Positions 12,596 through 44,400 of a DNA stretch of 46,881 bases are shown here, piece after piece (positions within the stretch are counted from its first letter, which is position 1; each line of letters opens with the position of its first letter). The stretch is from IMG/VR virus record IMGVR_UViG_3300018065_000012. One strand, 5' to 3'. The DNA is from a virus. Taxonomy: Duplodnaviria; Heunggongvirae; Uroviricota; Caudoviricetes. The notes beneath the pieces were generated by a model, which saw only the letters and a program-made list of their open reading frames with translations, did no database searches and had not been told where the DNA came from. The position numbers and the translations under genes are program-made.

Positions 12596-12661
12596 CTCAA
12601 TTGGCAGAGCAGGGCACTTGTAATGCTCAGGTTGTGGGTTCGAATCCCTCTGTTGGCTCCA
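12586..12661 (+). tRNA. tRNA-Thr(UGU)
   Basis: Acceptor GCCAACA/TGTTGGC, D GCTC-AATTGGCA-GAGC, anticodon stem GGGCA/TGCTC loop CUUGUAA, variable AGGTT, T-arm GTGGG-TTCGAAT-CCCTC, U73, CCA. Confidence 0.8.
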
Positions 12662-12677
12662 CTTCAAAGGGGAAATT

Positions 12678-13073: not shown

Positions 13074-13127
13074 AGCACGTCCTTGGTAAGGACGAGGTCA
13101 TGGGTTCGAGTCCCATCGGCAGCTCCA
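13053..13127 (+). tRNA. tRNA-Thr(GGU)
   Basis: Acceptor GCTGCCG/CGGCAGC, D GCTC/GAGC, anticodon stem CGTCC/GGACG loop UUGGUAA, T-arm ATGGG-TTCGAGT-CCCAT, U73, CCA. Confidence 0.8.
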
Positions 13128-13167
13128 AGCCTTTATCACCCCGCTATTTACGTTATGCAAATCATGG

Positions 13168-13244
13168 GCCACCTTAGCACAATTTGGCGGTGCGCTGCTT
13201 TCGTAAGGCAGAGGTTCCCGGTTCGAATCCGGGAGGTGGCTCCA
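13168..13244 (+). tRNA. tRNA-Thr(CGU)
   Basis: Acceptor GCCACCT/AGGTGGC, D GCAC/GTGC, anticodon stem CTGCT/GGCAG loop UUCGUAA, T-arm CCCGG-TTCGAAT-CCGGG, U73, CCA. Confidence 0.8.
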
Positions 13245-22650: not shown

Positions 22651-22671
22651 AATCACTAAAGGACTTGACCG

Positions 22672-23439: not shown

Positions 23440-23464
23440 AGAGAAATCTGGAAGAGGACTTGTA

Positions 23465-24987: not shown

Positions 24988-24991
24988 AGCA

Positions 24992-25744
24992 ATGGCTGAA
25001 ACAGTCGTACTTACAGAACGCATTCAGTCTGCATTGCTGAAGAAGGTAAATGGTCTTCGTGTCAGAGGAACAAGCGATACGGTTATAGCTATTGATTCGG
25101 GCGTTGTTGGTAGTGACGATGGTGACGTATGTATGGAAGTCACGTCCACAATTTCAGTGGATATTACGAATTCAGGTGCTAATGGATTGGATACGGGTGC
25201 GGCTGCGGCAAACACGTGGTATTACCTATTTTTGATTTATAATCCAACGACAGATACGGTTGCTGGATTGCTTTCAACGAGTCAAAGTTCGCCAACGATG
25301 CCTTTAGGATATACAAAGAAACGATGGATAAGTGCAGTGCGTCGAACCACTGTGTTGTTTCGATATACACAATGGAATGAAGAAATTTTGTTTGCTTACT
25401 ATATAGGCGTATTGAGCAATGGGAGTTCTACAAGCCGCACTCAAATCAGTTGCTCAAATTATGTTCCTGATGCTCATGCTTCTGCTTTTCTGGTTTTTGC
25501 AAATGCTACTTCATCAAATTTCCACGGAAGAGATATATGTACGATAGAGGAAGAAAGCGGCACCACGTACATGAGATTGTTCGCTGACTATGACGATGTT
25601 CCAACGCCGTTAAGTTTTATGAACCGAAACACTTGTAGCTGTTGGTTTCCAAACTATTATTCAACAGCCCGTGTGTACTATTACGTGAGTCATTCGCAAC
25701 AAGATTTAGACATTCTTATTCAAGGTTTCCAGTTGAGGTTATAA
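24992..25744 (+). CDS. Tandem paralog 5 of 6 (divergent)
   Basis: GANGLDTGAAAANTWYYLFLIYNPTTDT...SSPTMPLGYTKKR, C-terminal QGFQLRL. Confidence 0.55.
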   Translation: MAETVVLTERIQSALLKKVNGLRVRGTSDTVIAIDSGVVGSDDGDVCMEVTSTISVDITNSGANGLDTGAAAANTWYYLFLIYNPTTDTVAGLLSTSQSSPTMPLGYTKKRWISAVRRTTVLFRYTQWNEEILFAYYIGVLSNGSSTSRTQISCSNYVPDAHASAFLVFANATSSNFHGRDICTIEEESGTTYMRLFADYDDVPTPLSFMNRNTCSCWFPNYYSTARVYYYVSHSQQDLDILIQGFQLRL

Positions 25745-26819: not shown

Positions 26820-28055
26820 ATGCCGCATCTTTTGACTCAAGCCCAACAGAAGGAACAGGTGGCAGACCTTTCCTTGTATGTTGACCCTTCTGCATCGACC
26901 ATGACGGGGACAAATACTTCTGCTGTTACCAAGAAGTTGATTGACAGTGGCGGGGGTTTTTCGTCTTTGAAACCCCGTCAAGTAGTCGTCAATACCACTG
27001 ACCATACTGCTACAATTATTGATTACGTAGAAGATGACACGACACTCGTTTTGAAGAATCACATCTTTACCGCGACTTCAAAAGGCTATTCTATCGACAA
27101 CAATGCAGGAACTTCGGGTGACAAATTTAAGTATCCTCAATCAGCAATGGAAGCAGTACCAGAGACAATTGGCTTCTATCTTCATGTGTATCTTGCCGAT
27201 GGGACGTATAGCGAAATCGGAACAAGTGACATAGTGCTTGGTCGTGCAACAGTTTCAGATGCGTTTCTTTACATCAACAAAAAGATGGCGGCTGGTGGAC
27301 GTATTATAATCGAAGGCAACACGACGACTCCAGCCAACGTGCATTTTAACGGAACAACTCCATCTGCTGCTGCTGGTGTTTTAATTCAGAATGCTCAGAA
27401 AGTAGAAGTTGGAGGGTTGAAGGTATCCAACTGTACCTATGGGATTACTGCTGAAGAAAATTCATCTTTCAGGCTTTATGATGTTATTGCGACTGATTGT
27501 ACTTATGGAATTTCTTTGTTTGATGATTCGGATGGACAAGGTTGGCGGTTGATTTCTGGTCAAAGTGGGACAGGCAACACTTATGGCGTTTATATGGAGC
27601 GTGGATATTTCTACGTTTCCGATGAATCTGTTGGGTCAAGTTCATCCTCTTTGCGCTACAATGGATACAATATCTATCTAAAGACTTCGAGAATCAAAGT
27701 TATTGGAAATGCTACTGCCAATGTAAATCTTTCGGACTCGACAAATCAAGGCGTCTTTGCTACTGAAGGAAGTTCGCTTGAATTTGACCGCATTACAGTC
27801 GATAGTGCAGGGGCAGCGGGAATAGAGATAACATTTGAGAGCAGTGGAAGTGTAGCCAATTCTACTATCTCAAACAATACGGCTCAAGGAATTTTAGCGT
27901 TTAATAATTCCGTGATATACTCAGATACCAATACGGGTGCTGGAAGCACTTATGGTTTATCTGCTCAGAATGGTTCGGTAATCTCTAAGAATAGTACACA
28001 GCCTACGGGTACTGTAAGCAATGAACAAACGGTAAATGGTGGAGCGATTTACTAA
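26820..28055 (+). CDS. Tandem paralog 1 of 3: putative tailspike/depolymerase-like protein with right-handed beta-helix (pectate-lyase-like) repeats
   Basis: Conserved N-terminus (ADLSLYVD...TMTGTNTS...LKP.QVVVNT.D.TAT(I/V)(I/V)DY) followed by repeated (V/I)xNCTxGIxxxEN / NTYGxxxE beta-helix-like motifs; 411 aa. Confidence 0.55.
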   Translation: MPHLLTQAQQKEQVADLSLYVDPSASTMTGTNTSAVTKKLIDSGGGFSSLKPRQVVVNTTDHTATIIDYVEDDTTLVLKNHIFTATSKGYSIDNNAGTSGDKFKYPQSAMEAVPETIGFYLHVYLADGTYSEIGTSDIVLGRATVSDAFLYINKKMAAGGRIIIEGNTTTPANVHFNGTTPSAAAGVLIQNAQKVEVGGLKVSNCTYGITAEENSSFRLYDVIATDCTYGISLFDDSDGQGWRLISGQSGTGNTYGVYMERGYFYVSDESVGSSSSSLRYNGYNIYLKTSRIKVIGNATANVNLSDSTNQGVFATEGSSLEFDRITVDSAGAAGIEITFESSGSVANSTISNNTAQGILAFNNSVIYSDTNTGAGSTYGLSAQNGSVISKNSTQPTGTVSNEQTVNGGAIY

Positions 28056-28075
28056 ATAGGTGCAGGAGTTAGCGA

Positions 28076-29311
28076 ATGCCCCTTTTGACTCAAAACCAGA
28101 AAAAAGCGCAAGTTGCAGACCTGAGTTTGTATGTTGATAATTCTCAGTCCACAATGACAGGAACGAATACATCCGTTGTTTCCAATAAACTGATTGATTC
28201 GAGTGCAGATTTCTCGACGTTGAAACCGCATCAGGTAGTAGTGAACACAAGCGACCATACAGCGACAATCATTGACTATGTTGAAAACGATACTACAATA
28301 GTTCTGAAAGAGAATATTTTTACGGCGACTCCAAAGGGCTATTCCGTTGACAATCACACAGGTGCTTCAAGCGACAAATTCAAATATCCGCAATCGACAA
28401 TGGAATCTGTTCCTGCAAATATTGACTTTTATCTACACGTCTATATTGCTGACGGGACATACAGTGAGATTTCGGCAAGTGATATAGATACTATTCGTGG
28501 TAGCTTTGGAAAGGCTTTTCTTTTCATCAACAAAAGAATGAACGCTGGTGGGCGTATTGTTGTTGAAGGTAATACGACCACTCCCGCCAATGTTCTTTTC
28601 AATGGTACAACTCCATCGGCTGCTGTTGGTGTTCTTGTTCAAGATACTCAGAAGGTTGAAGTGAAAGGATTGAAAGTAACGAATTGTACGCATGGGATTG
28701 GTGTTGTCGAGAATTCTTTCTTGACTGTTTCCGATACCATTACAAACAGCAACAATAATGGGTTTACGGTCTATATGTACTCGTATGTTTTAGCCTCTCG
28801 GATAATTTCTGGCGAAAGTGGCGTTAAGAACACTTATGGTATATTGATGGAGTCGAGTACCTTCAATATTGACGATTCAGGTTCGGGAGCAAACTCGTCG
28901 TCGTTGCGTTACAACACTGACAACATCAATGCGTATTCTTCGACAGTCGCAGTTACAGGCAATGCTACCGCTAACGTTAATTTGTCCGATTCTACAAATT
29001 GGGGCGTCATTTTAAGAACATGCAATACAGCGATTCTTGACCGTGTTATTATTGACAGTGCGAGTTCTGGTGGGGCAATTCAAGTCAATTACGAAGGCAA
29101 TTTGAGTATCAGCAATTCTGTTATCTCAAACAATTCAACGAGAGGAATTACAGCTTATAGTAATTCCTTCGTATACTCAAGCAACAATACTGGTGCGGGT
29201 CAATCGTATGGTTTGGTTGCTCAACATGGTTCGGTTATTTTGAAGAACGGTACACAACCCACAGGAACAACGTCAAATGAACAAACATCAACAGGTGGAG
29301 CGATTTATTAA
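28076..29311 (+). CDS. Tandem paralog 2 of 3 (beta-helix tailspike-like)
   Basis: Same architecture; AGGAG SD. Confidence 0.55.
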   Translation: MPLLTQNQKKAQVADLSLYVDNSQSTMTGTNTSVVSNKLIDSSADFSTLKPHQVVVNTSDHTATIIDYVENDTTIVLKENIFTATPKGYSVDNHTGASSDKFKYPQSTMESVPANIDFYLHVYIADGTYSEISASDIDTIRGSFGKAFLFINKRMNAGGRIVVEGNTTTPANVLFNGTTPSAAVGVLVQDTQKVEVKGLKVTNCTHGIGVVENSFLTVSDTITNSNNNGFTVYMYSYVLASRIISGESGVKNTYGILMESSTFNIDDSGSGANSSSLRYNTDNINAYSSTVAVTGNATANVNLSDSTNWGVILRTCNTAILDRVIIDSASSGGAIQVNYEGNLSISNSVISNNSTRGITAYSNSFVYSSNNTGAGQSYGLVAQHGSVILKNGTQPTGTTSNEQTSTGGAIY

Positions 29312-29330
29312 GAAGGTGTAGGAGTCAGAA

Positions 29331-30569
29331 ATGCAGCATCTTTTAGTCAGAGCGCAACAGAAGGAAAAAGTCACAAGCCTTGACCTTTACGTTGATGCTT
29401 CTCAAACAACGACGACAGGAACCAACACATCTGTTGTTAGTGGAAAGCTGGTTGATTCCACCGCAGATTTTCGGTCTTTGAAACCGCATCAAGTGGTTGT
29501 CAACACAACTGATGGTACGGCTACGGTTGTCGACTATGCGGAAAACAGAACAACGTTGGTTTTGAAGAACCACATTTTCACAGCAACAAGCAAAGCATAT
29601 AGTATTGATGACCATACAGGTTCTTCAAGCGACAAATTCAAGTATCCTCAATCAGCTTTAGAAGCGATGCCTTCAACAATTGGTATTATTTCTCGTGTCT
29701 ATATTGCTGACGGTACATATAATGTGATGGGAACAACTGATGTAATTTGTAATCGTGGCGATGTTACAAAAGCTATCCTTTACGTCAACAAAAGTTTTAC
29801 TGCTGGTGGTCGTATAGACATTATAGGCAATGTATCAACTCCGGCGAATGTTGCTTTTAATGGTACAACTCCTTCTTCGAATGCTGGTGTATTCGTTCAA
29901 GGCAGTCAGAAAATAGAAGTTGAAGGAATCAAGGTAACGAATTGTGTGCATGGGATTACTGCTCAAGAAAAATCATCGGTAGAGGTTTTCGATACGATTA
30001 CAAATAGCAACACTTATGGGTTGTCTGTTTTTTCTCAATCGGTTATGGATTGTTTTAGGGTAATTTCTGGCGAGAGTGGTGCGGGAAATTCTTATGGCGC
30101 ATACCTCGAAGACAGCAATTGTTACATTGCAGATTCAGCTTCAGGAGCAAATTCGTCTTCGCTTCGTTATAATACGACAAACAATATCTATGCGGTGTTT
30201 TCAAGATTGAGGGCGTTGGGCAATGTTACTGCCAATGTGAACTTGTCCAATGCTACGGGATGGGGAGTAATTGCAAGCAGAGGCAGCACGGTAGATTTTG
30301 ACTATGTAACGATTGACAGTTCGGGTGCAGGGGGTTTTCAGGCTACATATGAGAGCAATGCCAGTTTAAGGGATTCCGTTGTTTCAAATAATACCACTTG
30401 GGGCATTTCAGCCGACCTTAATTCGTATGTGAACTCCCGTGATATGAGTGGTGCTGGAAATGATTATGGTTTGGTTTCTGAACTTGGCTCCGTTGTTCAG
30501 AAAGTCGGTACACAGCCCACAGGAGTATCAGGAAACGAATTGACAGCTACGGGCGGTACGATTATCTAA
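29331..30569 (+). CDS. Tandem paralog 3 of 3 (beta-helix tailspike-like)
   Basis: Same architecture; AGGAG SD. Confidence 0.55.
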   Translation: MQHLLVRAQQKEKVTSLDLYVDASQTTTTGTNTSVVSGKLVDSTADFRSLKPHQVVVNTTDGTATVVDYAENRTTLVLKNHIFTATSKAYSIDDHTGSSSDKFKYPQSALEAMPSTIGIISRVYIADGTYNVMGTTDVICNRGDVTKAILYVNKSFTAGGRIDIIGNVSTPANVAFNGTTPSSNAGVFVQGSQKIEVEGIKVTNCVHGITAQEKSSVEVFDTITNSNTYGLSVFSQSVMDCFRVISGESGAGNSYGAYLEDSNCYIADSASGANSSSLRYNTTNNIYAVFSRLRALGNVTANVNLSNATGWGVIASRGSTVDFDYVTIDSSGAGGFQATYESNASLRDSVVSNNTTWGISADLNSYVNSRDMSGAGNDYGLVSELGSVVQKVGTQPTGVSGNELTATGGTII

Positions 30570-33891: not shown

Positions 33892-33967
33892 GGGGATGTA
33901 GCTCAGTTGGGAGAGCGCTGCGTTCGCAATGCAGAGGTCAGGGGTTCGAATCCCCTCGTCTCCACCA
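33892..33967 (+). tRNA. tRNA-Ala(CGC) with G3-U70
   Basis: Acceptor GGGGATG/CGTCTCC, D GCTC/GAGC, anticodon stem CTGCG/TGCAG loop UUCGCAA, T-arm AGGGG-TTCGAAT-CCCCT, A73, CCA. Confidence 0.75.
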
Positions 33968-33975
33968 AATATAAT

Positions 33976-34052
<77 letters not shown>

Positions 34053-34054
34053 TT

Positions 34055-34130
34055 GGGGGCATAGCTCAGCTGGGAGAGCACAAGCTTTGCAAGCTTGGGG
34101 TCAGGAGTTCGAGTCTCCTTGCCTCCACCA
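34055..34130 (+). tRNA. tRNA-Ala(UGC) with G3-U70
   Basis: Acceptor GGGGGCA/TGCCTCC, D GCTC/GAGC, anticodon stem CAAGC/GCTTG loop UUUGCAA, T-arm AGGAG-TTCGAGT-CTCCT, A73, CCA. Confidence 0.8.
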
Positions 34131-34137
34131 AATACAA

Positions 34138-34271
34138 AAGGCACGCTTCAGTGAAGAGTTACTTCCCTTCGGCGGACGAAGTTCAGGTTCGATTCCTGAC
34201 CCTCCAACCATGATGGAGGGTAGTGTAATGGTAGCACGCGTAAAATATCTCTTTGCGTCTTTTGGTGCCTT
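34138..34271 (+). ncRNA. Bracketed element C1 with a permuted tRNA-like core (acceptor closed by an ACCATGA loop that encodes the discriminator and CCA)
   Basis: Terminal helix AAGGCAC/GTGCCTT; 5' module GCTTCAGTGAAGAGTTACTTC; T-arm TCAGG-TTCGATT-CCTGA; CCCTCCA-ACCATGA-TGGAGGG; D-arm GTGT-AATGGTA-GCAC; 3' module ...CTCTTTGCGTCTTTTGG. The anticodon region is aberrant. Confidence 0.5.
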
Positions 34272-34280
34272 TTATATTTT

Positions 34281-34388
34281 TCAGCACGCTTCAGTGATGA
34301 CATACTTCTTGGTTCAACTCCAACATCGCCCTCTATATGGGCGATGGTGCCACGTGGGTGGCGGTGTTGTTACGTTTTTTGGTGCTGA
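34281..34388 (+). ncRNA. Bracketed element C2 with a permuted tRNA-like core lacking an anticodon arm
   Basis: Terminal helix TCAGCAC/GTGCTGA; T-arm TTGG-TTCAACT-CCAA; acceptor CATCGCC-loop-GGCGATG; D-arm GCCA-CGTGGG-TGGC; 3' module CGTTTTTTGG. Confidence 0.5.
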
Positions 34389-34404
34389 ACTTTTTGAATA
34401 AATT

Positions 34405-34513
34405 CCGGCACGCTTCAGCGTGGGCTTACTTCTTTCTTAAAAAAAGAACCTGCCTGTTCGATTCAGGTGTTGGGTGGACCCGGTACAATTCGCTCATGCG
34501 TCTTTTGGTGCTG
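34405..34513 (+). ncRNA. Bracketed element C3 (anticodon-like arm and T-arm, degenerate acceptor and D parts)
   Basis: Terminal helix CCGGCAC/GTGCTGG (one G-U); TTCTTT-CUUAAAA-AAAGAA arm; T-arm GCCTG-TTCGATT-CAGGT; 3' module GCGTCTTTTGG. Confidence 0.45.
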
Positions 34514-34518
34514 GATTT

Positions 34519-34593
34519 AGCGGTGTTAGTGTATTGGTTGCACATTTGGTTCCCAGCCAGAAGGAGCCAGTTCGAGTCTGGTACACCGCTCCA
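34519..34593 (+). tRNA. tRNA-Gly(CCC)
   Basis: Acceptor GCGGTGT/ACACCGC, D GTGT/GCAC, anticodon stem TTTGG/CCAGA loop UUCCCAG, T-arm GCCAG-TTCGAGT-CTGGT, U73, CCA. Confidence 0.75.
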
Positions 34594-34596
34594 TTT

Positions 34597-34673
34597 GTCA
34601 AGGTAGCTCAGCACGGTAGAGCACTGGCCTGAAGAGCCGGGTGTCGTCGGTTCAAATCCGACCCTTGACGCCA
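34597..34673 (+). tRNA. tRNA-Phe(GAA)
   Basis: Acceptor GTCAAGG/CCTTGAC, D GCTC/GAGC, anticodon stem CTGGC/GCCGG loop CUGAAGA, T-arm GTCGG-TTCAAAT-CCGAC, G73, CCA. Confidence 0.8.
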
Positions 34674-34676
34674 CAC

Positions 34677-34752
34677 GCAGGCGCATGTTCCAAGGCTGGC
34701 GACGGGGATTCCAAATCCTTGTGGGTAGGTTCGATTCCTACCGTCTGCGCCA
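34677..34752 (+). tRNA. tRNA-Trp(CCA), copy 1
   Basis: Acceptor GCAGGCG/CGTCTGC, irregular D-arm, anticodon stem GGGGA/TCCTT loop UUCCAAA, T-arm GTAGG-TTCGATT-CCTAC, G73, CCA. Confidence 0.7.
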
Positions 34753-34755
34753 TAC

Positions 34756-34830
34756 AGGGCCATAGTTTAATTGGTAAAACGGGGGATTCCAAATCCTTTG
34801 ATGCGGGTTCGATTCCTGCTGGCCCTGCCA
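34756..34830 (+). tRNA. tRNA-Trp(CCA), copy 2 (identical anticodon arm, different body, A1-U72)
   Basis: Acceptor AGGGCCA/TGGCCCT, D GTTT/AAAC, anticodon stem GGGGA/TCCTT loop UUCCAAA, T-arm GCGGG-TTCGATT-CCTGC, G73, CCA. Confidence 0.7.
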
Positions 34831-34836
34831 ATCTGT

Positions 34837-34928
34837 GGAGAGTGTTCCCCACGGCAGACTGTAAATCTGTTGCCCATCAGAATAAGTGGGGTGGCGGCGA
34901 ATGGGTTCAATTCCCTCACTCTCCACCA
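34837..34928 (+). tRNA. atypical tRNA-Tyr(GUA)-like, 92 nt: 8-bp acceptor, no canonical D-arm, enlarged variable region (possible pseudo-tRNA)
   Basis: Acceptor GGAGAGTG/CACTCTCC; anticodon arm GCAGA-CUGUAAA-TCTGT; only TT-CCCC-ACG between the acceptor and anticodon stems; GTGGGG in the variable region could pair with CCCC; weak T-stem GGG/CCC; A73, CCA. Confidence 0.4.
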
Positions 34929-34932
34929 TTAA

Positions 34933-35018
34933 GGAGCGGTAGTCTAATTGGTAAGGCAGTGGGCTGTAAACCCACCGGCATTGCGCCATTGGAGGTTCGA
35001 GTCCTCCCCGCTCCACCA
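34933..35018 (+). tRNA. tRNA-Tyr(GUA), class II
   Basis: Acceptor GGAGCGG/CCGCTCC, D GTCT/AGGC, anticodon stem GTGGG/CCCAC loop CUGUAAA, variable arm CGGCATTGCGCCAT, T-arm GGAGG-TTCGAGT-CCTCC, A73, CCA. Confidence 0.8.
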
Positions 35019-35039
35019 TTTTTCTTTTTCAGCAAAAAT

Positions 35040-35061
35040 CTTTTATATTCGGTTGTATAAT
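35040..35061 (+). promoter_or_regulatory. weaker promoter-like site sharing the GGTTGTATAAT -10 element (no good -35)
   Basis: TATAAT 35056-35061 preceded by GGTTG as in the other promoters; the -35 region is CAAAAA. Confidence 0.3.
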
Positions 35062-35083
35062 ATAAGGGTAATTCTCACAGGGG

Positions 35084-35338
35084 ATGAATATGGAAACTCG
35101 GCCAGAAACGGGCAAAATGAAGTTTGGCGACGACTGGTCTGGAATATTCATCCGAGGCGACAATGCTTTCAATTATCATATGCAACTCAAAGAAGTTTTG
35201 AAAGACAATGGCGGTGAATTCGGCATTATTGCGAAACATACAATCCGAGATTTGATTGATCTTTTGGAATCTTGCGAAGAGCATAATGATATCAAACCGC
35301 AAAAATTGAAATCATTCGAGGAATGCCGTTATGAATGA
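35084..35338 (+). CDS. hypothetical protein (84 aa)
   Basis: ORF-track frame; overlaps the dCMP deaminase start by 8 nt. Confidence 0.45.
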   Translation: MNMETRPETGKMKFGDDWSGIFIRGDNAFNYHMQLKEVLKDNGGEFGIIAKHTIRDLIDLLESCEEHNDIKPQKLKSFEECRYE

Positions 35339-35786
35339 TAGACCATCCATTGACCAGACGATGATGGATATTGCAAAAACTTGGTCCTTTCGATCAAGAT
35401 GTTTACGGCGACAAGTGGGTTCAGTAATCGTAAAAGACAAACATGTTTTGACTTCTGGTTATAATGGCCCGCCAAAAGGGTTGCCTCATTGCGATGAATG
35501 TGGTGGTTGTTTGCGGCAAGAAATGGATTTGCCGTCAGGCGAACGTCAAGAACTTTGCAGAGGTTCTCACGCAGAATTGAATGCAATTATTCAAGCGGCA
35601 ATATTTGGGATAAGCGTAAAAGGCGCAACGCTGTATTGCACAAACTTTCCTTGTAACTTTTGTGCCAAAGCAATTGTTCAAGCTGAGATTAAAAAAGTCA
35701 TTTACGAAGATGACTATACGGAAGACGATAACATGGCAAAACAAATGCTTGAACATGTTGGAATTAAAATGGAGAAATTTGAATGA
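35331..35786 (+). CDS. cd: dCMP deaminase (cytidine/deoxycytidylate deaminase family)
   Basis: Zinc-binding HAELNAI and PCNFCAKAI (H[AC]E...PCxxC) motifs; size and context as in T4-type dCMP deaminases. Confidence 0.8.
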   Translation: MNDRPSIDQTMMDIAKTWSFRSRCLRRQVGSVIVKDKHVLTSGYNGPPKGLPHCDECGGCLRQEMDLPSGERQELCRGSHAELNAIIQAAIFGISVKGATLYCTNFPCNFCAKAIVQAEIKKVIYEDDYTEDDNMAKQMLEHVGIKMEKFE

Positions 35787-35962
35787 GCTGGAAAGATTTT
35801 CTTTACGGCGCGGCATCTGTTCTCGACTTGTCTGGTTCAATGGGCAATGCGCAAGTGAATGAAATTTTGCGCAAGTCTGACGCGGAAGCATTGAGGTCAG
35901 ATTGGGAAGCAGTTGGACAAGACATGTGGAAGGCGATTGAACAATCTGAAGATGTCGGGTGA
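35783..35962 (+). CDS. small acidic hypothetical protein (59 aa), translationally coupled to cd
   Basis: ATGA overlap with the cd stop; MSWKDFLYGAASVLDLSGSMGNAQVNEILRKSDAEALRSDWEAVGQDMWKAIEQSEDVG*. The stop lies inside the next tRNA. Confidence 0.45.
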   Translation: MSWKDFLYGAASVLDLSGSMGNAQVNEILRKSDAEALRSDWEAVGQDMWKAIEQSEDVG

Positions 35963-36038
35963 GCGCAGCTGGTGCTGTGAGTGGCCTGCAAAGCCATTTG
36001 GCCTTTGGGTCCAACTGGTTCGATTCCAGCATCCGACT
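35954..36038 (+). tRNA. tRNA-Sec-like (8/4 'allo-tRNA' architecture) tRNA with GCA (Cys) anticodon
   Basis: 8-bp acceptor GTCGGGTG/CATCCGAC; 6-bp D-stem CGCAGC/GCTGTG with 4-nt loop TGGT; 6-bp anticodon stem AGTGGC/GCCATT with loop CUGCAAA; long variable arm TGGCCTTTGGGTCCAA; 4-bp T-stem CTGG/CCAG with loop TTCGATT; U73; no encoded CCA. Confidence 0.5.
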
Positions 36039-36056
36039 CTAATTTGGAGAACATGA

Positions 36057-36311
36057 ATGCCAAAAAGAAGTTTCCCGCTCAAGATCAGTTTTGATCATGA
36101 AATTGATCGAGATACGATGTTTTTTCTTGCTGTAAAGTTTGCGAGAGAATATCCAAAAGCAGCGACACAAATAATTGGAGCATTGGAAGGGGAACGGAAA
36201 TATTGCAAGATCAATTGTCCGTTCCCTTTTGTATGTAGTGAGTTTCCTTGCAAAACGCTTTGTTGTAACGCAGACTGCTGCGACAACGGCCACGCTTATA
36301 GGATGAGCTGA
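36057..36311 (+). CDS. hypothetical Cys-rich protein (84 aa)
   Basis: GGAG SD. The C-terminus has CKINCPFPFVCSEFPCKTLCCNADCCDNGH. Confidence 0.45.
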   Translation: MPKRSFPLKISFDHEIDRDTMFFLAVKFAREYPKAATQIIGALEGERKYCKINCPFPFVCSEFPCKTLCCNADCCDNGHAYRMS

Positions 36312-36685
36312 TGCAATACGAACTTGAAAATGGTTACAAGGTTTGGGTGAACGCGAAGACTTACCGCTCGAAATTGAACAAGCAAGTTTGCATCAAATGT
36401 TTGAAACAGTATTGGCCAGATGCAGATTCCGTTTGGGATGTTCAAGCAGAACTGAAATGGGAAGAAGGCAGGTTGTATATTTGTCCTTGTTCTTCTGTTA
36501 ACGGGCGCGATGAAAACCGCAGAGCAGGCCGATACAACGAAGGCCGGTTGATCGAACACGACCCACCGGAAGCTTGCCCATTCAAAACAGAGCATCTTGT
36601 CAGTTGTAATAAACAAGGTTTCATCTATTATAAAAGCCGCATTGAGGAGTATTGCGAAAAGAATTTCAAAAAGGTGAAAAGGTGA
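36311..36685 (+). CDS. hypothetical protein (124 aa, Cys-containing)
   Basis: TGATG overlap with the upstream gene. Confidence 0.5.
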   Translation: MQYELENGYKVWVNAKTYRSKLNKQVCIKCLKQYWPDADSVWDVQAELKWEEGRLYICPCSSVNGRDENRRAGRYNEGRLIEHDPPEACPFKTEHLVSCNKQGFIYYKSRIEEYCEKNFKKVKR

Positions 36686-36873
36686 AGCTGATTGTAAAAT
36701 TTGTCGTCTTGATTGCTGGAAGTTATCTTTGCTATTTGTCTTGGGCTGAGCCAAAAACAATTATTTGGCTGTATGGAAATTATATCATGCCGGTTTTCTT
36801 TGCATGTATTCCGTTTTATGCAGCATGGTGGTGCTATCAAGACTTAAAGAGCGCCCGTAGCTCAGATGGATAG
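36682..36873 (+). CDS. small membrane protein (about 63 aa, two hydrophobic helices)
   Basis: GTG start overlapping the upstream TGA (GTGA). VKLIVKFVVLIAGSYLCYLSW...IMPVFFACIPFYAAWWCY. The 3' end overlaps tRNA-Arg(CCG). The ORF-track frame starts at 36652. Confidence 0.4.
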   Translation: MKLIVKFVVLIAGSYLCYLSWAEPKTIIWLYGNYIMPVFFACIPFYAAWWCYQDLKSARSSDG

Positions 36874-36927
36874 AGCGTCTGCCTCCGGAGCAGAAGGTCA
36901 CAGGTTCGAGTCCTGTCGGGCGTGCCA
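36851..36927 (+). tRNA. tRNA-Arg(CCG)
   Basis: Acceptor GCGCCCG/CGGGCGT, D GCTC/GAGC, anticodon stem TCTGC/GCAGA loop CUCCGGA, T-arm ACAGG-TTCGAGT-CCTGT, G73, CCA. Confidence 0.8.
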
Positions 36928-36946
36928 AACATACGAGGATGAAAGA

Positions 36947-37204
36947 ATGATAATCATGGAGCATGGAAACGTCGATAAACAAGTACCCAATCAAGGCGCG
37001 TGGGATATTCATGTTGCGGGGCAAGAAAAATATCCACTGGTGGTGATCCTTTGTCCCAAATGTCAAAAAGTATCTTGTCTCCGTAATCATACGATTCATC
37101 GCGACGGGACAGTTTCACCAAGCTTGGTCTGTCCAAGAGATGAATGTAATTTTCATGAAATGATCAAGTTGAAAGACTGGAAAGGGTTGCCTCAAAAATT
37201 GTAG
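36947..37204 (+). CDS. small zinc-ribbon-like protein (85 aa)
   Basis: ATG 36947 after GAGGATGAAAGA (the ORF-track frame from 36866 opens inside the tRNA). CPKCQ...CPRDEC. Confidence 0.45.
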   Translation: MIIMEHGNVDKQVPNQGAWDIHVAGQEKYPLVVILCPKCQKVSCLRNHTIHRDGTVSPSLVCPRDECNFHEMIKLKDWKGLPQKL

Positions 37205-37207
37205 TTT

Positions 37208-37283
37208 GGGCCGGTAACTCAATTGGTAGAGAACCGTTCTTATACAGCGGTAGTCGTTGGTTCGAATCCAACCCGGCCTACCA
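37208..37283 (+). tRNA. tRNA-Ile(UAU)
   Basis: Acceptor GGGCCGG/CCGGCCT, D ACTC/GAGA (3 bp), anticodon stem CCGTT/AGCGG loop CUUAUAC, T-arm GTTGG-TTCGAAT-CCAAC, A73, CCA. Anchored to ORF-track TTG 37223. Confidence 0.75.
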
Positions 37284-37304
37284 AATTCAAGATGGAGTGG
37301 AATT

Positions 37305-37559
37305 ATGAAAGAGGGACGCATAAGCAAAGGTGGCGTGGGAAATCCTCCAACAAGACCAAGACCCAAGCCACCAAAGGGACAAGGAGGCTCTCAAAAGTTG
37401 AAAGAAGTTTTGGAAGCCCTTGAATTCTATGCTGATGAAAGCAATTGGAAAAACGGGACGTCAGTTCATTACGAATGGGCGACGTTTGCTGAGTTGGATG
37501 AAGGCAAACGGGCAAGAAAAGCACTTGAAAAATATCGGGGTGTAGGAAAGTCTGGTTAA
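37305..37559 (+). CDS. hypothetical protein (84 aa)
   Basis: ATG 37305 after GGAGTGG (the ORF-track frame starts at 37257 inside the tRNA). The last 24 nt overlap tRNA-Pro(CGG). Confidence 0.4.
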   Translation: MKEGRISKGGVGNPPTRPRPKPPKGQGGSQKLKEVLEALEFYADESNWKNGTSVHYEWATFAELDEGKRARKALEKYRGVGKSG

Positions 37560-37613
37560 TCCGCTACGTTCGGGACGTAGAGATCGCCGGTTCAAATCCG
37601 GCCACCCCGACCA
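37536..37613 (+). tRNA. tRNA-Pro(CGG)
   Basis: Acceptor CGGGGTG/CACCCCG, D GGAA/ATCC (3 bp), anticodon stem CTACG/CGTAG loop UUCGGGA, T-arm GCCGG-TTCAAAT-CCGGC, A73, CCA. Confidence 0.8.
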
Positions 37614-37629
37614 CTTTAGGAAAAGGCTG

Positions 37630-37764
37630 ATGAACGATCCAAAAGCTTATCAATACACAGGCTCATTGAGTGACAAGTTCTTTATTGTGTTGATCATTTT
37701 AGCAATGATTTCTGTTCCTATTTTTATTATAATTGCGTTTTTGTATTGGGTTCCAAGGAGCTAA
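37630..37764 (+). CDS. small single-TM membrane protein (44 aa)
   Basis: AGGAAAAGG SD then ATG 37630. MNDPKAYQYTGSLSDKFFIVLIILAMISVPIFIIIAFLYWVPRS*. The stop lies 1 nt before the next ATG. Confidence 0.4.
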   Translation: MNDPKAYQYTGSLSDKFFIVLIILAMISVPIFIIIAFLYWVPRS

Positions 37765-37765
37765 A

Positions 37766-38008
37766 ATGCTTTACACGGTTGGCGAGACAGAAAAATACGA
37801 GCAATATATAAAAGAGCAAGGCACGATTTCAAAGGCAGTTGGTGGCTCAGTTTGGAGTTCAAAAGAAGCCGCGCAAAAGTATTTGAAAGAAAGAGGGTTG
37901 CTTGGAAAATTTACTGTTTACGGCATTGACGCCGGTTGGAATGATACTGAATATACAGGTAATCCTTGGCGTGATTTGAAAATTGTTGCAAAAATAATTG
38001 AACTTTGA
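37766..38008 (+). CDS. hypothetical protein (80 aa)
   Basis: ATG 37766 after AAGGAG (the ORF-track frame starts at 37733). Confidence 0.5.
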   Translation: MLYTVGETEKYEQYIKEQGTISKAVGGSVWSSKEAAQKYLKERGLLGKFTVYGIDAGWNDTEYTGNPWRDLKIVAKIIEL

Positions 38009-38082
38009 GCGGGTGTAGCTTAATGGTAAAGCTCCAGCCTTCCAAGCTGATCACGTGGGTTCGATTCCCATCGCCCGCTCCA
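38009..38082 (+). tRNA. tRNA-Gly(UCC)
   Basis: Acceptor GCGGGTG/CGCCCGC, D GCTT/AAGC, anticodon stem CCAGC/GCTGA (C27/A43 mismatch) loop CUUCCAA, T-arm GTGGG-TTCGATT-CCCAT, U73, CCA. Confidence 0.7.
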
Positions 38083-38087
38083 TTTAA

Positions 38088-38161
38088 GCGGCTGTAGCTC
38101 AGTGGTAGAGCGCAAGGTTGCCAATCTTGCTACGAGGGTTCGATTCCCTTCAGCCGCTCCA
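38088..38161 (+). tRNA. tRNA-Gly(GCC)
   Basis: Acceptor GCGGCTG/CAGCCGC, D GCTC/GAGC, anticodon stem CAAGG/TCTTG loop UUGCCAA, T-arm GAGGG-TTCGATT-CCCTT, U73, CCA. Confidence 0.8.
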
Positions 38162-38223
38162 AAATTAAAGATGAAACGGAGATATATGATGAGCCAATCA
38201 CCTTTTGTTCGGGGGATTACATC

Positions 38224-38481
38224 ATGGACGCTCCAAAATGCGAACATCTGTTACCATTTTTGCAAGCTCAAACGCGGCTGATAACAAAACATTTGGGCGA
38301 GCATAAATGGTTCCAAAAAATTGAAAGTGAAAATGAAGCAGTTGGAGATTTCATTGAAAAGTTTGGGTGGGTAATGCGAGAATTCTTTTGTGGTTATTGT
38401 TGTGAACATCGTTATGAATGCGACATTGCCATAGAATACGATTTCTTGCCGCCAGAGAGGAAAAAGCAAAATGACCCTTGA
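38224..38481 (+). CDS. hypothetical protein (85 aa, Cys/His-containing)
   Basis: ORF-track frame; a GGGGGA lies upstream. Confidence 0.4.
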   Translation: MDAPKCEHLLPFLQAQTRLITKHLGEHKWFQKIESENEAVGDFIEKFGWVMREFFCGYCCEHRYECDIAIEYDFLPPERKKQNDP

Positions 38482-39274
38482 AGAAGCACGCAAACTTGTT
38501 TTGAAATCATTCAACAAAAGTGATTTCTATTACAACCATCAATCGCCGCATGGCTATACAAACTTCATTGACGGGATGGCGTGGGTTGGTTTATTGTGCG
38601 GCGCATGTCATCTTGTGGATGACAAAGAGTTGGCGGCATTAGCAGAAAACTACTTGAGAATGCTTTTGAAAGTTGGACCGGATGCAAGAAATTATGCGCC
38701 GATGAAAGTAAGAGACGACTGGATCAAATCTGAAACAGCTCCCGGATTTTGGTACCGTAAAAAGCCGCAGTCCTTCGCGGGGCCAGCGGCTTTATTGTTT
38801 GCTATCAACTGCGGCGCAAAATTGGATAACCCCTTCAACATTGAATCACGTGCCAAGTGGATGCGTTTCTTAAATCCATTCTTTGGTTATCTTGTGCGTT
38901 GGTTTCATTGGTTCAGACAGCATATCAATAGTCAGTTTATCGCTCATTTGATTAACGATTCCAAACCGCCAAGCTCAATGCTTTGGTTGTGCGAGGAAAA
39001 TCCTTTTTTCAGCGCTATTGCTGGAATTGAATGCAGTGTTGAATACCCGAAATCATGGAGCCGGTTTCAAAAGTATGAAACAAAAGACGTGGACGATATT
39101 CAACCGCTGAAAAACCGGAAACCATCAGCTTGGATTTTCAGAAGTTGGCCCAAGGCCGAATACACTGGCGCACTTCCTTACGCGGGCAGTGCTTATACGC
39201 CAACGGCAATGGTTGTTGGTGAATATTTGCAACAGCATTTGAGGAAGAAAAATGCCAAAGTACAAGACAGTTGA
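38471..39274 (+). CDS. hypothetical protein (267 aa, Trp/Phe-rich)
   Basis: Overlaps the upstream gene by 11 nt. No motif recognised. Confidence 0.5.
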   Translation: MTLEEARKLVLKSFNKSDFYYNHQSPHGYTNFIDGMAWVGLLCGACHLVDDKELAALAENYLRMLLKVGPDARNYAPMKVRDDWIKSETAPGFWYRKKPQSFAGPAALLFAINCGAKLDNPFNIESRAKWMRFLNPFFGYLVRWFHWFRQHINSQFIAHLINDSKPPSSMLWLCEENPFFSAIAGIECSVEYPKSWSRFQKYETKDVDDIQPLKNRKPSAWIFRSWPKAEYTGALPYAGSAYTPTAMVVGEYLQQHLRKKNAKVQDS

Positions 39275-39491
39275 GGAACTTGCGCAAGCATTCCAAACAG
39301 GTGAGTTTGGAGCAGATGGTCAAGTTATCAAGATTGAATCGGATGACATAAACGCTTCATTGGTTCGGGTAACTTGCGCAGAGGAAAGTCCTGACGAGTT
39401 TGAAATAATGTTCGAAGGATACGTACAAGGCGGTTATACAAAAGTGAAAAACGAGCTTGGGCCGTCTTTTGGAAGAGCGAAAAAAGAATGA
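39252..39491 (+). CDS. hypothetical acidic protein (79 aa)
   Basis: Overlaps the upstream gene by 23 nt. Confidence 0.45.
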   Translation: MPKYKTVEELAQAFQTGEFGADGQVIKIESDDINASLVRVTCAEESPDEFEIMFEGYVQGGYTKVKNELGPSFGRAKKE

Positions 39492-39494
39492 CGT

Positions 39495-39571
39495 CGGGGT
39501 GTGGCTCAGCTTGGTAGAGCGCTTGACTGGGGGTCAAGAGGTCGCTGGTTCAAATCCAGTCACCCCGACCA
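39495..39571 (+). tRNA. tRNA-Pro(GGG)
   Basis: Acceptor CGGGGTG/CACCCCG, D GCTC/GAGC, anticodon stem CTTGA/TCAAG loop CUGGGGG, T-arm GCTGG-TTCAAAT-CCAGT, A73, CCA. Confidence 0.8.
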
Positions 39572-41002: not shown

Positions 41003-41494
41003 ATGAGAAAGTGGCGCGTAATCCGAGATTTTTACCTTGGAGAGTCTGATCGCATCAAAGCGAGAAATCCGAATGAAGACAATTTCATGCTTTATGAAGG
41101 CACAATTATCTATGAGGCAGAAAATACCGATCGCGTAGTCATCAATGGAAAAGTTTATCATTTCAGAATTGGAACAGTTTTTACTCGCTTTTGCGTTCTT
41201 GAAGAAACACTTCCAGAATCGGTTACAGGCGACACAATGCCGGGTGGGGTGTTACCAGCGGACCTTGTTTGGAAAGGTCCAAGTGATCTGACCACCATCA
41301 TCGCCGGGAAACGATATCAAACCCCAGATAGATTTTTTGAGGAGAGTCTCGTTGTTGCAATTCGTGGTTTGATTGTTGCCGATGAAAATGTCGATGGATT
41401 CACAATCATCGACGACCAAACATTTGAAATGAAAGAAACCTACACAAAACCGAAGGATTGGATCATGTGTGGGTATGTTAAGAAAAGCTCATGA
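41003..41494 (+). CDS. hypothetical protein (163 aa)
   Basis: ORF-track frame; its stop overlaps the start of the collagen-like gene (ATGA). Confidence 0.5.
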   Translation: MRKWRVIRDFYLGESDRIKARNPNEDNFMLYEGTIIYEAENTDRVVINGKVYHFRIGTVFTRFCVLEETLPESVTGDTMPGGVLPADLVWKGPSDLTTIIAGKRYQTPDRFFEESLVVAIRGLIVADENVDGFTIIDDQTFEMKETYTKPKDWIMCGYVKKSS

Positions 41495-44400
41495 CACGTA
41501 GCCTTCTCAGCCAATCACTCCAAGTCGATGCTTCCGCAACTTATGATGATACTATAGCTTCAGTACATACTCAACCTGTTGCGGAAGGTCAAGCCAATCT
41601 TGAAGGTGATCTGAATGTTCTTCGTACGTTATTGAAGAATTTGATCGGAGAACCTGATTGGTATGACCCCGCTGAATTATCGATGAAGGAACTTGCTGAT
41701 AAGTTCCTGATGGAAGCACTCCATCAGAGTGGTTTTGAAAATGTCACGGTTGGAACGGGAACCAGCACAACAGTTTTTGATGGCCCAATCAAGTCAATCG
41801 CGAATCACAACAATGGTCAAGGTTCTTCCACTGTTGAGGGCGTCGTCGTTGACTCGGAAAGGGCATATCGACTCTTTATTCGAGACCATGATTCAGGCGA
41901 CCCAATTTCAGACGGCAGCGGAAATGCAGTTTATGGCCGTTTGAGTTTTGGCGCTGGTACATATACGATAAGTTGGCACACCTTCAATGGTGGTTCTGAG
42001 TCAACTTACAACTTCACTTCCCCTATCGACCTTGATCTTGCGTTTGTCGCTGTTTCAAGGCAGTTCAAAAATCTTGATTGGAATCATTTTCTTGACGTTG
42101 AATTTTATGACATCGGTATCGGCGGCATTGGTTCGCAAGGTAACCAAGGAAATCAAGGTGACGTTGGCATCGATGGAGTTCAGGGGCCGCAAGGAAACAC
42201 GGGTATTGACGGCGTTCAAGGCGGCCAAGGACGCCAAGGAAATCAAGGCGAAGTTGGTGAGTCTGGCGTTCAAGGTTATCAGGGTTGGCAAGGTACCATT
42301 GGAGTTGATGGCGTTCAAGGAGCGCAAGGAAATCAAGGAAATATTGGTATCGACGGTGTTCAAGGCGCACAAGGCAATCAGGGTGACATTGGTACAGACG
42401 GTGTCCAAGGTGGTCAAGGCGTTCAGGGTTGGCAGGGAACGGGTGATACAGGCCCGCAAGGAAACGACGGTGTTCAGGGCTGGCAAGGTGATTTTGGAGC
42501 GCAAGGTAATCAAGGCGACGAGGGCACAGGCAATCAGGGCAACCAAGGGCCAGCAGGAATTGATGGACAGCAAGGTGCTCAAGGTGATGTAGGTATTCAG
42601 GGCTATCAAGGCAATCAGGGCTTCATCGGCGTTCAAGGATTTTCTCCGCAAGGTTGGCAAGGCCCACAAGGTGGAATTGGCGTTGATGGCGTCCAAGGAA
42701 ATCAAGGACGACAAGGTAATCAGGGCAACGCTGGCGACACTGGCGGGCAAGGTCGTCAGGGTGCGCAAGGCGCTGTCGGTGCTGATGGATTCCAAGGAAA
42801 TCAAGGCGACATAGGCGTTGATGGAGTTCAAGGGCCGCAAGGCAATGTTGGTTTGCAAGGCGTTCAAGGATGGCAAGGCGACCAAGGCGTTGACGGTGTT
42901 CAGGGCAACCAAGGTAATCAGGGTGATGTTGGCTCTGATGGTGCTGACGGTGCGCAAGGCCGTCAGGGAAATCAGGGTCAAGTTGGTGACATCGGCGCAC
43001 AAGGAGCGCAAGGCTGGCAAGGACTTCAAGGTATTGACGGAGTCCAAGGCAATCAGGGTGTTGCGGGTGACATCGGTTTCCAAGGCGCACAGGGTTATCA
43101 AGGAACAGGCGTACAAGGTAGTCAGGGAAACCAAGGAGACATCGGTGTTGACGGTGTTCAGGGAACGCAAGGCAATCAAGGTGACATCGGTGTTGATGGA
43201 GTTCAGGGGCCGCAGGGTGACGTTGGTATTGACGGTGTCCAAGGCGTTCAAGGTTCGCAAGGCAATCAAGGTCAAGTTGGAGATACCGGAGCGCAGGGTA
43301 ACCAAGGACGCCAAGGAAATCAAGGTCAAGTTGGAGATACAGGCTCTCAAGGCAACCAAGGAGATATCGGCGTTCAGGGTGCGCAGGGCAATCAAGGACT
43401 TCAGGGTGACCAAGGCGTAGATGGTGTTCAGGGCAGTCAAGGTAACCAAGGCGACATTGGTGTTGATGGAGTACAGGGTGCGCAGGGCAATCAAGGACTT
43501 CAGGGCGACCAAGGAATTGACGGAGTTCAAGGCACTCAAGGTTGGCAAGGTATAGTTGGCTTCCAAGGTAATCAGGGTTTGCAAGGGATAGACGGTGTTC
43601 AAGGTAATCAAGGTTCGCAAGGAAATCAAGGTCAAGTTGGAGATACGGGTTCGCAAGGAACACAGGGCAACCAAGGAGATGTAGGACAAGACGGCGTTCA
43701 AGGGAACCAAGGCCGTCAAGGAAATCAGGGCGACATCGGTGTTGACGGTGTTCAGGGCAGTCAAGGTAATCAGGGCGCTGTTGGCGTTGATGGAGTCCAA
43801 GGCGTGCAGGGCGATGTCGGTTCTGATGGAGTCCAAGGTGTTCAGGGAAATCAGGGTTGGCAAGGAGATGTCGGCATTGATGGCGTTCAAGGCCCACAAG
43901 GTAACGTGGGTGTCGACGGCGTTCAAGGCGTACAAGGCTCTCAGGGTTGGCAGGGAATTGACGGAGTTCAAGGCGTACAAGGTTGGCAAGGACTTCAAGG
44001 CGACCAAGGAATAGATGGCGTTCAGGGCAATCAGGGAAATCAGGGTTCACAAGGCAATCAGGGTGAAGTAGGCGATACTGGAACACAAGGGACGCAGGGC
44101 AACCAAGGCATTATTGGACAAGATGGAGTTCAGGGTAACCAAGGTCGTCAAGGGAATCAAGGTGCTATCGGTGTTGATGGCGTTCAAGGCAATCAGGGGA
44201 ATCAAGGCGACCAAGGGATAGATGGAGTACAGGGTAATCAAGGTTGGCAAGGAACGGGCGACACAGGGGCGCAAGGCAGTCAAGGCAATCAGGGTTGGCA
44301 AGGTGAATTTGGCCCACAAGGAGATGAAGGCACAGGCAATCAGGGTTCACAGGGGCCAGCGGGAATTGATGGTACACAGGGTTTCCAAGGTTCTGACGGT

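Follow-up and report, generated by a model that had tools for sequence, protein, structure and literature searches.

A huge phage carries a probable tRNA-Cys on a selenocysteine tRNA-like 8/4 scaffold

Can a transfer RNA (tRNA) with the body of a selenocysteine (Sec) tRNA serve as an ordinary cysteine tRNA? The question is raised by a tRNA gene of 85 nucleotides (nt), here called tRNA-Cys(GCA), in IMG/VR record IMGVR_UViG_3300018065_000012, a 46,881-nt stretch of DNA from a virus of the class Caudoviricetes; the whole stretch, 46.9 kb in length, is referred to as the window. The gene carries the anticodon GCA on a scaffold whose acceptor and T stems are 8 and 4 base pairs (bp) long (8/4). The results presented here make it probable that this gene encodes a working phage tRNA-Cys, built on a scaffold of the selC*/allo-tRNA type and decoding UGU and UGC. 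The window is most likely a same-strand stretch of a huge phage. It holds structural, tail and HNH matches in PHROG, a dCMP deaminase and sugar-modifying enzymes, and DNA identical to it was found on contigs of up to 338 kb from several metagenomes; the genome measures at least 338 kb.

The tRNA adopts an 8/4 fold with a Cys anticodon

The gene was identified as tRNA-Cys(gca) by ARAGORN, whose drawing shows eight acceptor pairs and four T-stem pairs (Table 1). In Rfam, it matched the tRNA-Sec model RF01852 with 60.6 bits (gathering threshold 47; E value 5.8e-10 over the whole window), and this match won the clan competition over an overlapping match from clan CL00001, for which the output gives neither name nor score. 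The minimum free energy (MFE) fold was the 8/4 cloverleaf, at -37.6 kcal/mol, and forcing position 8 to stay unpaired raised the energy to -34.5 kcal/mol. The eighth acceptor pair, G8-C, had an ensemble probability of 0.99, the would-be 49:65 pair is A.C, and the folding z-score against shuffled sequences was -2.5. All helices of the tRNA are intact, with one G.U and otherwise no mismatch; the least certain pair is the sixth of the anticodon stem, an A-U with a probability of 0.40. The TGGT (G18G19-type) and TTCGATT loops are undamaged, and judging from their sequences a normal contact between the D and T loops is possible.

The agreement of ARAGORN, the Rfam tRNA-Sec model and free-energy folding confirms that the 8/4 fold is real. 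The length, anatomy and coordinates that the original prediction had read from the bare sequence were thus borne out, as was the presence of a GCA anticodon on a Sec-like scaffold. That prediction had named a better-scoring conventional 7/5 fold as grounds for giving it up; such a fold proved 3.1 kcal/mol worse, the Sec model was preferred, and the eighth pair covaries among the relatives described below. The tRNA was 100% identical in four independent assemblies, indicating that the gene is real; being identical, the four copies are uninformative on selection.

The tRNA is the sole Cys tRNA among 47 tRNAs in the window

ARAGORN detected 47 tRNA genes in the window, arranged in two arrays (2585-13244 and 33892-39571), and Rfam at its gathering threshold supported 46 of them, the general tRNA model accounting for 45 and the tRNA-Sec model for the one at 35953-36038. 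The tRNA-Cys(GCA) was the sole Cys tRNA of the set: as had been claimed, no standard tRNA-Cys stands elsewhere in the window, where a second Cys tRNA was found neither by ARAGORN nor by Rfam, and no further tRNA of any kind was found in the approximately 9 kb upstream of it. Tabulated under standard wobble rules, the 47 anticodons, which include Ile-UAU and two CAU tRNAs, serve all 20 amino acids and all 61 sense codons, and coverage of the 61 codons was reached only with tRNA-Cys(GCA) counted in. The open reading frames (ORFs) of the window contain 149 Cys codons (87 TGT and 62 TGC). With the only Cys anticodon of the 47 and with Cys determinants in the tRNA, service as the phage Cys tRNA is the better supported of the two uses that had been proposed for it, the other being the recoding of UGA as Cys.

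A 3′ CCA is encoded in 46 of the 47 tRNA genes. The sole exception is tRNA-Cys(GCA), whose 3′ end, ...GACU, is followed by CUAAUU in place of CCA. The gene stands approximately 0.8-0.9 kb from the nearest tRNAs on either side.

Another odd tRNA was noticed in the second array at 34677-34752. ARAGORN called it tRNA-Trp(CCA), and a canonical tRNA-Trp lies directly downstream (34756-34830). It fell below the Rfam gathering threshold, its best model being tRNA-Sec with 32.8 bits. Its acceptor, which begins at 34677, is 7 bp long and its D arm is aberrant; the gene may represent a degenerate duplicate or a further tRNA of non-canonical type.

The 8/4 structure is conserved in a small viral family

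Five further viral contigs (L002, L310, L065, L342 and L324) were found to carry an 8/4 tRNA with a GCA anticodon and U73, in every case within a tRNA array. These relatives were retrieved by variable-gap pattern scans of IMG/VR and the JGI metagenomes, and pairs were counted on a hand-made structural alignment of the six sequences, MAFFT having misaligned the T stem and L324. The result showed that all 24 proposed pairs, the six D-stem pairs included, are standard in all six sequences, with two to four pair types at most positions. The eighth acceptor pair covaries, reading GC, GC, GC, AT, GC and TG across the six, and the rival 49:65 pair is unable to form in any of them. G1-C72 and U73 are invariant. 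The compensatory changes among the six sequences suggest selection on the 8/4 structure.

The best Rfam model for each of the five was tRNA-Sec, with 38-43 bits, below the gathering threshold. Their variable regions are 7-11 nt long versus 16 nt in the window tRNA, which by virtue of this arm is the most Sec-like of the six; the size of these 8/4 scaffolds with U73 and GCA ranges from 76 to 85 nt. In the arrays that hold the other 8/4 tRNAs-Cys, CCA is encoded in 4 of 30 neighbouring tRNAs, indicating that genes lacking it are normal there. One member, at 536-616 of L002, was missed both by ARAGORN and by Rfam at the gathering threshold.

Close relatives of the window phage were not found in the collections searched. 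The phage itself was absent from the scanned metagenome and genome collections, and BLAST searches of 50,697 phage records, with the locus and with the tRNA as queries, gave unrelated tRNA-Arg matches or none. Relatives of the dCMP deaminase in IMG/VR are at most 44% identical, and tBLASTx detected no other genes in common with their loci. Because of this lack of close phage relatives, true orthologues of the tRNA-Cys could not be aligned.

Comparison with known tRNA systems

A bacterial precedent for Sec-like tRNA-Cys, to which the original prediction had alluded, does exist: the selC* tRNAs-Cys of anaerobic bacteria combine a Sec-like body with U73 and an anticodon that is either GCA or UCA (Mukai et al., 2017; PMC5389517). 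Their definition includes a selenocysteine apparatus (selA/B/C/D) in the genome, and selB* or cysS* often lies downstream (PMC5389517). The window tRNA resembles them in U73, the GCA anticodon, the Sec-like body, the long variable (V) arm and the match to the tRNA-Sec model, and shares with them the longer acceptor (8 bp) and anticodon stem (5-6 bp). Unlike them, it lies in a phage tRNA array and not in the chromosome of an anaerobe; its surroundings, as covered by the window and the approximately 9 kb upstream, hold neither selB* or cysS* nor sel genes; it is a plain 8/4 molecule lacking the A51a bulge seen in the delta-proteobacterial type; it lacks the CCA that is encoded in two other strict 8/4 genes with a long V arm, L256 and L298; and it is the sole Cys tRNA of its set, whereas selC* tRNAs are additional ones.

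Allo-tRNAs are defined by 8/4 or 9/3 helices, and the phage 8/4 tRNAs reported along with them are for Ser and His only (PMC5389517). In the window tRNA, as in the (8/4) type, the 12 bp of the acceptor/T helix are divided 8/4, the D arm is Sec-type, with a tetraloop on a long stem, and the V arm is long; the 8/4 tRNA-Ser and tRNA-His of phages also lie in phage tRNA clusters. However, allo-tRNAs mostly have Ser (or Ala) identity and a mismatched anticodon, whereas the window tRNA joins Cys elements to a Cys anticodon. A check of Ser and Ala identity elements found no G3:U70, G73 or G2-C71 in the tRNA, which does have U73 and a large V arm. As the anticodon matches the Cys determinants, there would be no mismatch of identity and anticodon if cysteinyl-tRNA synthetase (CysRS) charges the tRNA.

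With bacterial tRNA-Sec (RF01852, selC), the window tRNA shares the 8-bp acceptor, the 6-bp D stem with a 4-nt loop, the 6-bp anticodon stem, the long V arm and A37 within A36-A37-A38. It differs in having GCA instead of UCA, U73 instead of G73, a 12-bp 8/4 helix instead of a 13-bp 8/5 helix, and no Sec machinery in view. A second group of viral tRNAs-Cys, with a long V arm and a 7/5 body (described below), has GCA, U73, the long V arm and large viral contigs in common with it, but has U8 and a D arm of the class-II type, where in the window tRNA G8 is paired, the T stem has 4 bp and the D arm is of the Sec type. Canonical bacterial tRNA-Cys is 7/5, with U8, a 3-4-bp D stem and a 4-5-nt variable loop, and the window tRNA differs from it in all these features. 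It thus fits the structural definitions of selC* tRNA-Cys and of the 8/4 allo-type and fails those of tRNA-Sec and canonical tRNA-Cys. No report of a phage 8/4 tRNA-Cys was found in a literature search of incomplete coverage; there is none in PMC5389517 or in a 2020 review.

Cys identity and a proposed pathway

The evidence for anatomy, for the unique Cys anticodon and for conservation in a family comes from the present analysis, and the account of processing, charging and delivery draws on published work. The Cys determinants carried by the tRNA are U73, G34-C35-A36 and C3-G70. The major determinants of Cys identity are U73 and G34-C35-A36, U73 alone being sufficient to give minihelices Cys identity, and the identity set also lists C3-G70 and G2-C71 (PMC9976931). 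Natural 8/4 allo-tRNAs undergo processing and charging in Escherichia coli, where EF-Tu and the ribosomes accept them (PMC5389517). The CysRS of D. tiedjei was functional in an in vitro assay with the selC* tRNA-Cys of the same species, and an engineered variant of it charged the selC* tRNA-Cys(UCA) of D. biacutus in E. coli (PMC5389517).

On this basis, the tRNA-Cys would be transcribed as part of a same-strand run of small genes and cleaved by RNase P at 35953/35954. Its stacked acceptor/T helix has the canonical 12 bp, which by analogy fits normal handling by RNase P and EF-Tu. RNase Z/BN-type processing would take off the 3′ trailer, and the host CCA-adding enzyme would add CCA to give the mature 3′ end ...CCGACUCCA. 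Charging by CysRS would rely on U73 and G34-C35-A36, EF-Tu would carry the Cys-tRNA to UGU and UGC codons on the ribosome, and the tRNA would round out a phage set that reads every sense codon.

Several findings weigh against this account. Position 2:71 is U-A, where the bacterial determinant for both Cys and Ser is G2-C71, and seryl-tRNA synthetase (SerRS), too, could be drawn by the combination of U73 and the 16-nt variable arm. As the only gene of the 47 without CCA, the tRNA-Cys needs extra host steps, and it may have been acquired recently or be in decay. A second tRNA-Cys was sought in the window and the approximately 9 kb upstream, out of a genome of at least 338 kb, and the family consists of six sequences retrieved with patterns in which the D-loop core, anticodon loop and T loop were fixed. 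Finally, the RNase P cut would take away the stop codon of the 59-amino-acid (aa) ORF upstream.

Alternative explanations

The strongest competitor to a working tRNA-Cys, although unlikely, is a tRNA-like element without a role in translation: a decaying xenologous gene, a cistron-separating signal for RNase P/Z or a decoy for tRNA-directed nucleases of the host. Such an element would agree with the unique lack of CCA, with a location precisely between a stop codon and the ribosome-binding site that follows, with the gap of approximately 0.8-0.9 kb to the neighbouring tRNAs, and with the failure to find a promoter or terminator of its own, in a scan that was uninformative. However, the helices are intact and the T-loop/D-loop contacts are conserved, Cys would otherwise be the one amino acid absent from a complete set, and the architecture is kept by compensatory change in five viral contigs where CCA-less neighbours are usual. 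In phage T4, moreover, tRNA genes lacking CCA are matured by the host RNase BN and CCA-adding enzyme, which counts against this explanation.

Less likely again is a Ser-accepting or dual-identity allo-type tRNA, recognized by SerRS via the long arm and inserting Ser at Cys codons or supplying Ser-tRNA for conversion. The 8/4 fold, the Sec-type D arm and the stem in the 16-nt variable arm speak for it. U73 also occurs on two of the four tRNA-Ser genes in the window (7699-7789 and 8430-8520, with anticodons UGA and CGA), where the usual bacterial discriminator of tRNA-Ser is G73. This suggests a host SerRS without a need for G73; since two phage tRNA-Ser genes carry U73, the host SerRS probably tolerates it. 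Mukai et al. counted a long V arm with G73 or U73 as Ser-like, and 8/4 allo-tRNAs have been shown to insert Ser at Leu codons (PMC5389517); C72 and R4-Y69 also agree with the bacterial Ser set (PMC9976931). On the other hand, the strong CysRS determinants U73 and GCA are present, and two elements of the Ser set, G2-C71 and G73, are missing. The five other 8/4 members, with variable regions of 7-11 nt unable to serve SerRS, still have U73, GCA and G1-C72. In E. coli, only the G73 variant of an allo-tRNA inserted Ser (PMC5389517), and Ser at all Cys codons would harm the Cys-rich proteins of the phage.

A further, improbable reading proposes that phages keep their own lineage of 8/4 Sec-shaped tRNA-Cys, of at least six members, and that the fold would be kept here because it is functionally distinct from the host tRNA-Cys. 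It might allow escape from tRNA-directed nucleases or regulators of the host, or serve SelB-like routing or Ser-to-Sec/Cys conversion at a subset of UGU/UGC codons in the adjacent Cys-rich proteins. The tRNA would then be more than an additional adaptor for Cys.

Recoding by Sec machinery is very improbable, whether as suppression of UGA with Cys or as a SelB-delivered tRNA-Sec with a Cys anticodon at special UGU/UGC codons. In its favour, tRNA-Sec is the best Rfam match, and bacterial selC* genes adjoin selB* and cysS* (PMC5389517). An anaerobic (class III) ribonucleotide reductase, NrdD, is encoded with its radical-SAM activase upstream (L347 5033-7649, approximately 2-5 kb before the window start); the two genes point to an anaerobic or facultative host, and an anaerobic one would be of the type that has Sec systems. 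However, UGA cannot be read by G34, which pairs with C or U in the third codon position, and TGA serves as stop codon more often than any other, in 23 of the 48 window ORFs. The discriminator is U, against G73 of tRNA-Sec, and the acceptor/T helix has 12 bp, against 13. No gene for selA, selB, selD, SepRS, CysRS or any other aminoacyl-tRNA synthetase was found in the window, and no sel, selB-like, cysS-like or synthetase gene in the approximately 9 kb upstream. Conserved enzymes align full-length to Pfam under the standard code, and the window ORFs show no sign of stop-codon reassignment. The earlier suggestion of UGA-to-Cys recoding thus finds no support.

Equally hard to sustain is the view that the 8/4 drawing misrepresents an ordinary 7/5 tRNA-Cys, with position 8 unpaired and an A.C mismatch at 49:65: the 7-bp acceptor, discriminator, trailer and overall length do equal those of the 7/5 tRNAs-Cys of L045, L109 and L121, and the general tRNA model gives the L045-type tRNA 55.8 bits, but the window tRNA has a firmly paired G8 in place of the near-universal U8, the energy penalty, ARAGORN and the clan competition all favour 8/4, the 6-bp D stem with its 4-nt loop is unlike the L045 type, and in the six sequences the eighth pair covaries with 49:65 unpaired.

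Long-arm 7/5 tRNAs-Cys and the origin of the gene

Viral contigs (loci L028-L146) also commonly carry tRNA-Cys(GCA) with a long variable arm on an otherwise canonical 7/5 body, in at least 64 distinct sequences at no fewer than 103 loci (examples in Table 1). All were called tRNA-Cys by ARAGORN, and U73 is present in 63 of the 64 distinct sequences among the matches listed. Their nearest match in an isolated phage is annotated as tRNA-Tyr, a sequence likeness that hints at derivation from class-II tRNAs. We know of no description of these tRNAs. On three of the contigs, tRNA-Asn and tRNA-Thr genes of an unusual length of 85-87 nt were also observed, with normal-length copies alongside (L045 7599-7685 and 12383-12467; L037 1352-1438 and 5808-5892; L056 1440-1526).

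The acceptor, discriminator and trailer of the window tRNA (GTCGGGT...ATCCGAC-T-CTA) are those of the 7/5 long-arm tRNAs-Cys in L045, L109 and L121, which have the same overall length. Because of these shared parts, and because it is the sole CCA-less gene, the tRNA-Cys was probably acquired apart from the other 46 tRNA genes; its source was probably another phage lineage. Duplication from another tRNA of the window was considered and rejected: the best identity was 62%, and the D arm was unmatched in any paralogue.

In a scan of genome collections, selC*-like GCA genes proved widespread among bacteria, occurring in Nitrospirota, Thermodesulfovibrionales, Desulfomonilaceae, Syntrophobacteraceae and Bacillota; similar genes in Cloacimonadota have G73. 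Those retrieved are mostly 8/5 and of mixed geometry. Among the retrieved bacterial-genome and metagenome loci, a strict 8/4 form with a long V arm was found only in L256, a contig of an Actinomycetota metagenome-assembled genome, and L298, an unbinned metagenome contig, and both encode CCA.

Typical tRNA-Sec genes (UCA, G73) were also seen on viral contigs L147-L152 and L154-L158. In L147, L148, L154 and L156, they lie within approximately 150 nt of one end, where integration of a prophage at the host selC would be expected to place them; in L149, L150, L152, L155 and L157, they lie kilobases away from both ends.

Flanking genes and other features of the window

The coordinates of the tRNA parts and of the flanking genes are collected in Table 1.

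Table 1. Parts of the tRNA-Cys(GCA), its flanking genes and examples of long-arm 7/5 tRNA-Cys; positions are those of the window unless a locus is named
Feature	Position	Strand	Description or evidence
tRNA-Cys(GCA), 85 nt, 8/4 Sec-like, G1 to U73, without encoded CCA	35954-36038	+	ARAGORN, Rfam, MFE
Acceptor 5′ strand GTCGGGTG	35954-35961	+	Pairs with 36030-36037; 8 bp including one G.U
Linker AG	35962-35963	+	Sequence
D arm, Sec-type	35964-35979 (35964-35969 / 35974-35979)	+	6 bp CGCAGC/GCTGTG, 4-nt loop TGGT
Anticodon arm	35980-35998	+	(A)GTGGC/GCCAT(T), 5-6 bp; loop CTGCAAA; A36-A37-A38
Anticodon GCA	35988-35990	+	
Variable arm	35999-36014	+	16 nt; 4-6-bp stem, loop TTTG
T arm	36015-36029	+	4 bp CTGG/CCAG, loop TTCGATT
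Acceptor 3′ strand CATCCGAC and discriminator T/U73	36030-36038 (36030-36037; 36038)	+	Followed by CTAATT
dCMP deaminase	35331-35786	+	Pfam PF00383, E 8.7e-23; PHROG 174, E 1.7e-45
59-aa ORF	35783-35962	+	ATGA start overlap with dCMP deaminase stop
Ribosome-binding site GGAG	36046-36049	+	8 nt past the tRNA 3′ end
Cys-rich 84-aa ORF, 8 Cys	36057-36311	+	After the GGAG site
Long-arm 7/5 tRNA-Cys	L045 7424-7509		
Long-arm 7/5 tRNA-Cys	L037 1179-1262		
Long-arm 7/5 tRNA-Cys	L056 345-428		

The tRNA overlaps the end of the 59-aa ORF that is coupled to the dCMP deaminase, an arrangement correctly recognized at the outset. The last three codons of this ORF (GTC GGG TGA) are nucleotides 1-9 of the tRNA, so that the stop codon TGA, nucleotides 7-9, lies inside it. 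Three homologues of the 59-aa ORF (P0002-P0004) have the common core SDAEALRSDWEAVGQDMWKA; PHROG matches were weak, and homologues occur in other phage tRNA regions. The 59-aa ORF is a member of a real protein family. It is speculative that the tRNA-Cys doubles as a cistron separator, cut before the stop of the 59-aa ORF and leaving a short GGAG leader for the next ORF.

The proteins encoded beside the tRNA-Cys (36057-36685 and 35331-35786) have 8 Cys in 84, 7 in 124 and 8 in 151 residues, against 1.4% overall. This Cys-richness may be a coincidence.

Several features were observed in other phage tRNA regions, reached through homologues of the 59-aa ORF or through the scans for tRNAs (L345 3162-3259 and 8985-9058; L343 2465-3120 and 6498-6650; L324 7040-7131). 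They comprise a match to the bacterial small signal recognition particle RNA (49.5 bits), a tRNA with the amber-reading anticodon CUA, a fragment of a group I intron and a fragment of transfer-messenger RNA. In these regions, a protein with an RF-1 domain adjoins a homologue of the 59-aa ORF, and a tRNA-His follows 8 nt later.

Elsewhere in the window, a giant ORF of more than 1797 aa (41491-46881) runs off the end; it is 1894 aa long as called in L003 and consists mostly of collagen triple-helix repeats (Pfam E value 4.8e-194), which explains why the last 5 kb are GC-rich and purine-skewed. Five tandem ORFs of approximately 250-258 aa and three of approximately 411 aa lie at 21886-25744 and 26820-30569. 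One of the five gave a weak match to the second domain of Mtd and the three contain beta-helix domains; the tandem ORFs resemble arrays of paralogous genes for receptor-binding or tail-fibre proteins.

Significance

The 8/4 tRNA-Cys genes matter for annotation, as such a gene can be labelled tRNA-Sec or overlooked, as was the one in L002. Because of such mislabelled or missed genes, estimates of phage codon coverage may wrongly omit Cys. With 76-85 nt, the U73/GCA scaffolds offer compact natural bases for engineering orthogonal Cys or Sec tRNAs. The finding adds Cys to Ser and His among the known phage 8/4 tRNAs and widens the range of selC*-type tRNA-Cys, described in anaerobic bacteria, to include phages, with a mechanism that is not new. 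If the proposed role is true, the window tRNA would be a natural 8/4 tRNA acting as the only adaptor encoded in a gene set for a standard amino acid, and the 7/5 rule would be dispensable in routine decoding, the 8/4 molecule being neither an extra suppressor nor a toxin-linked oddity.

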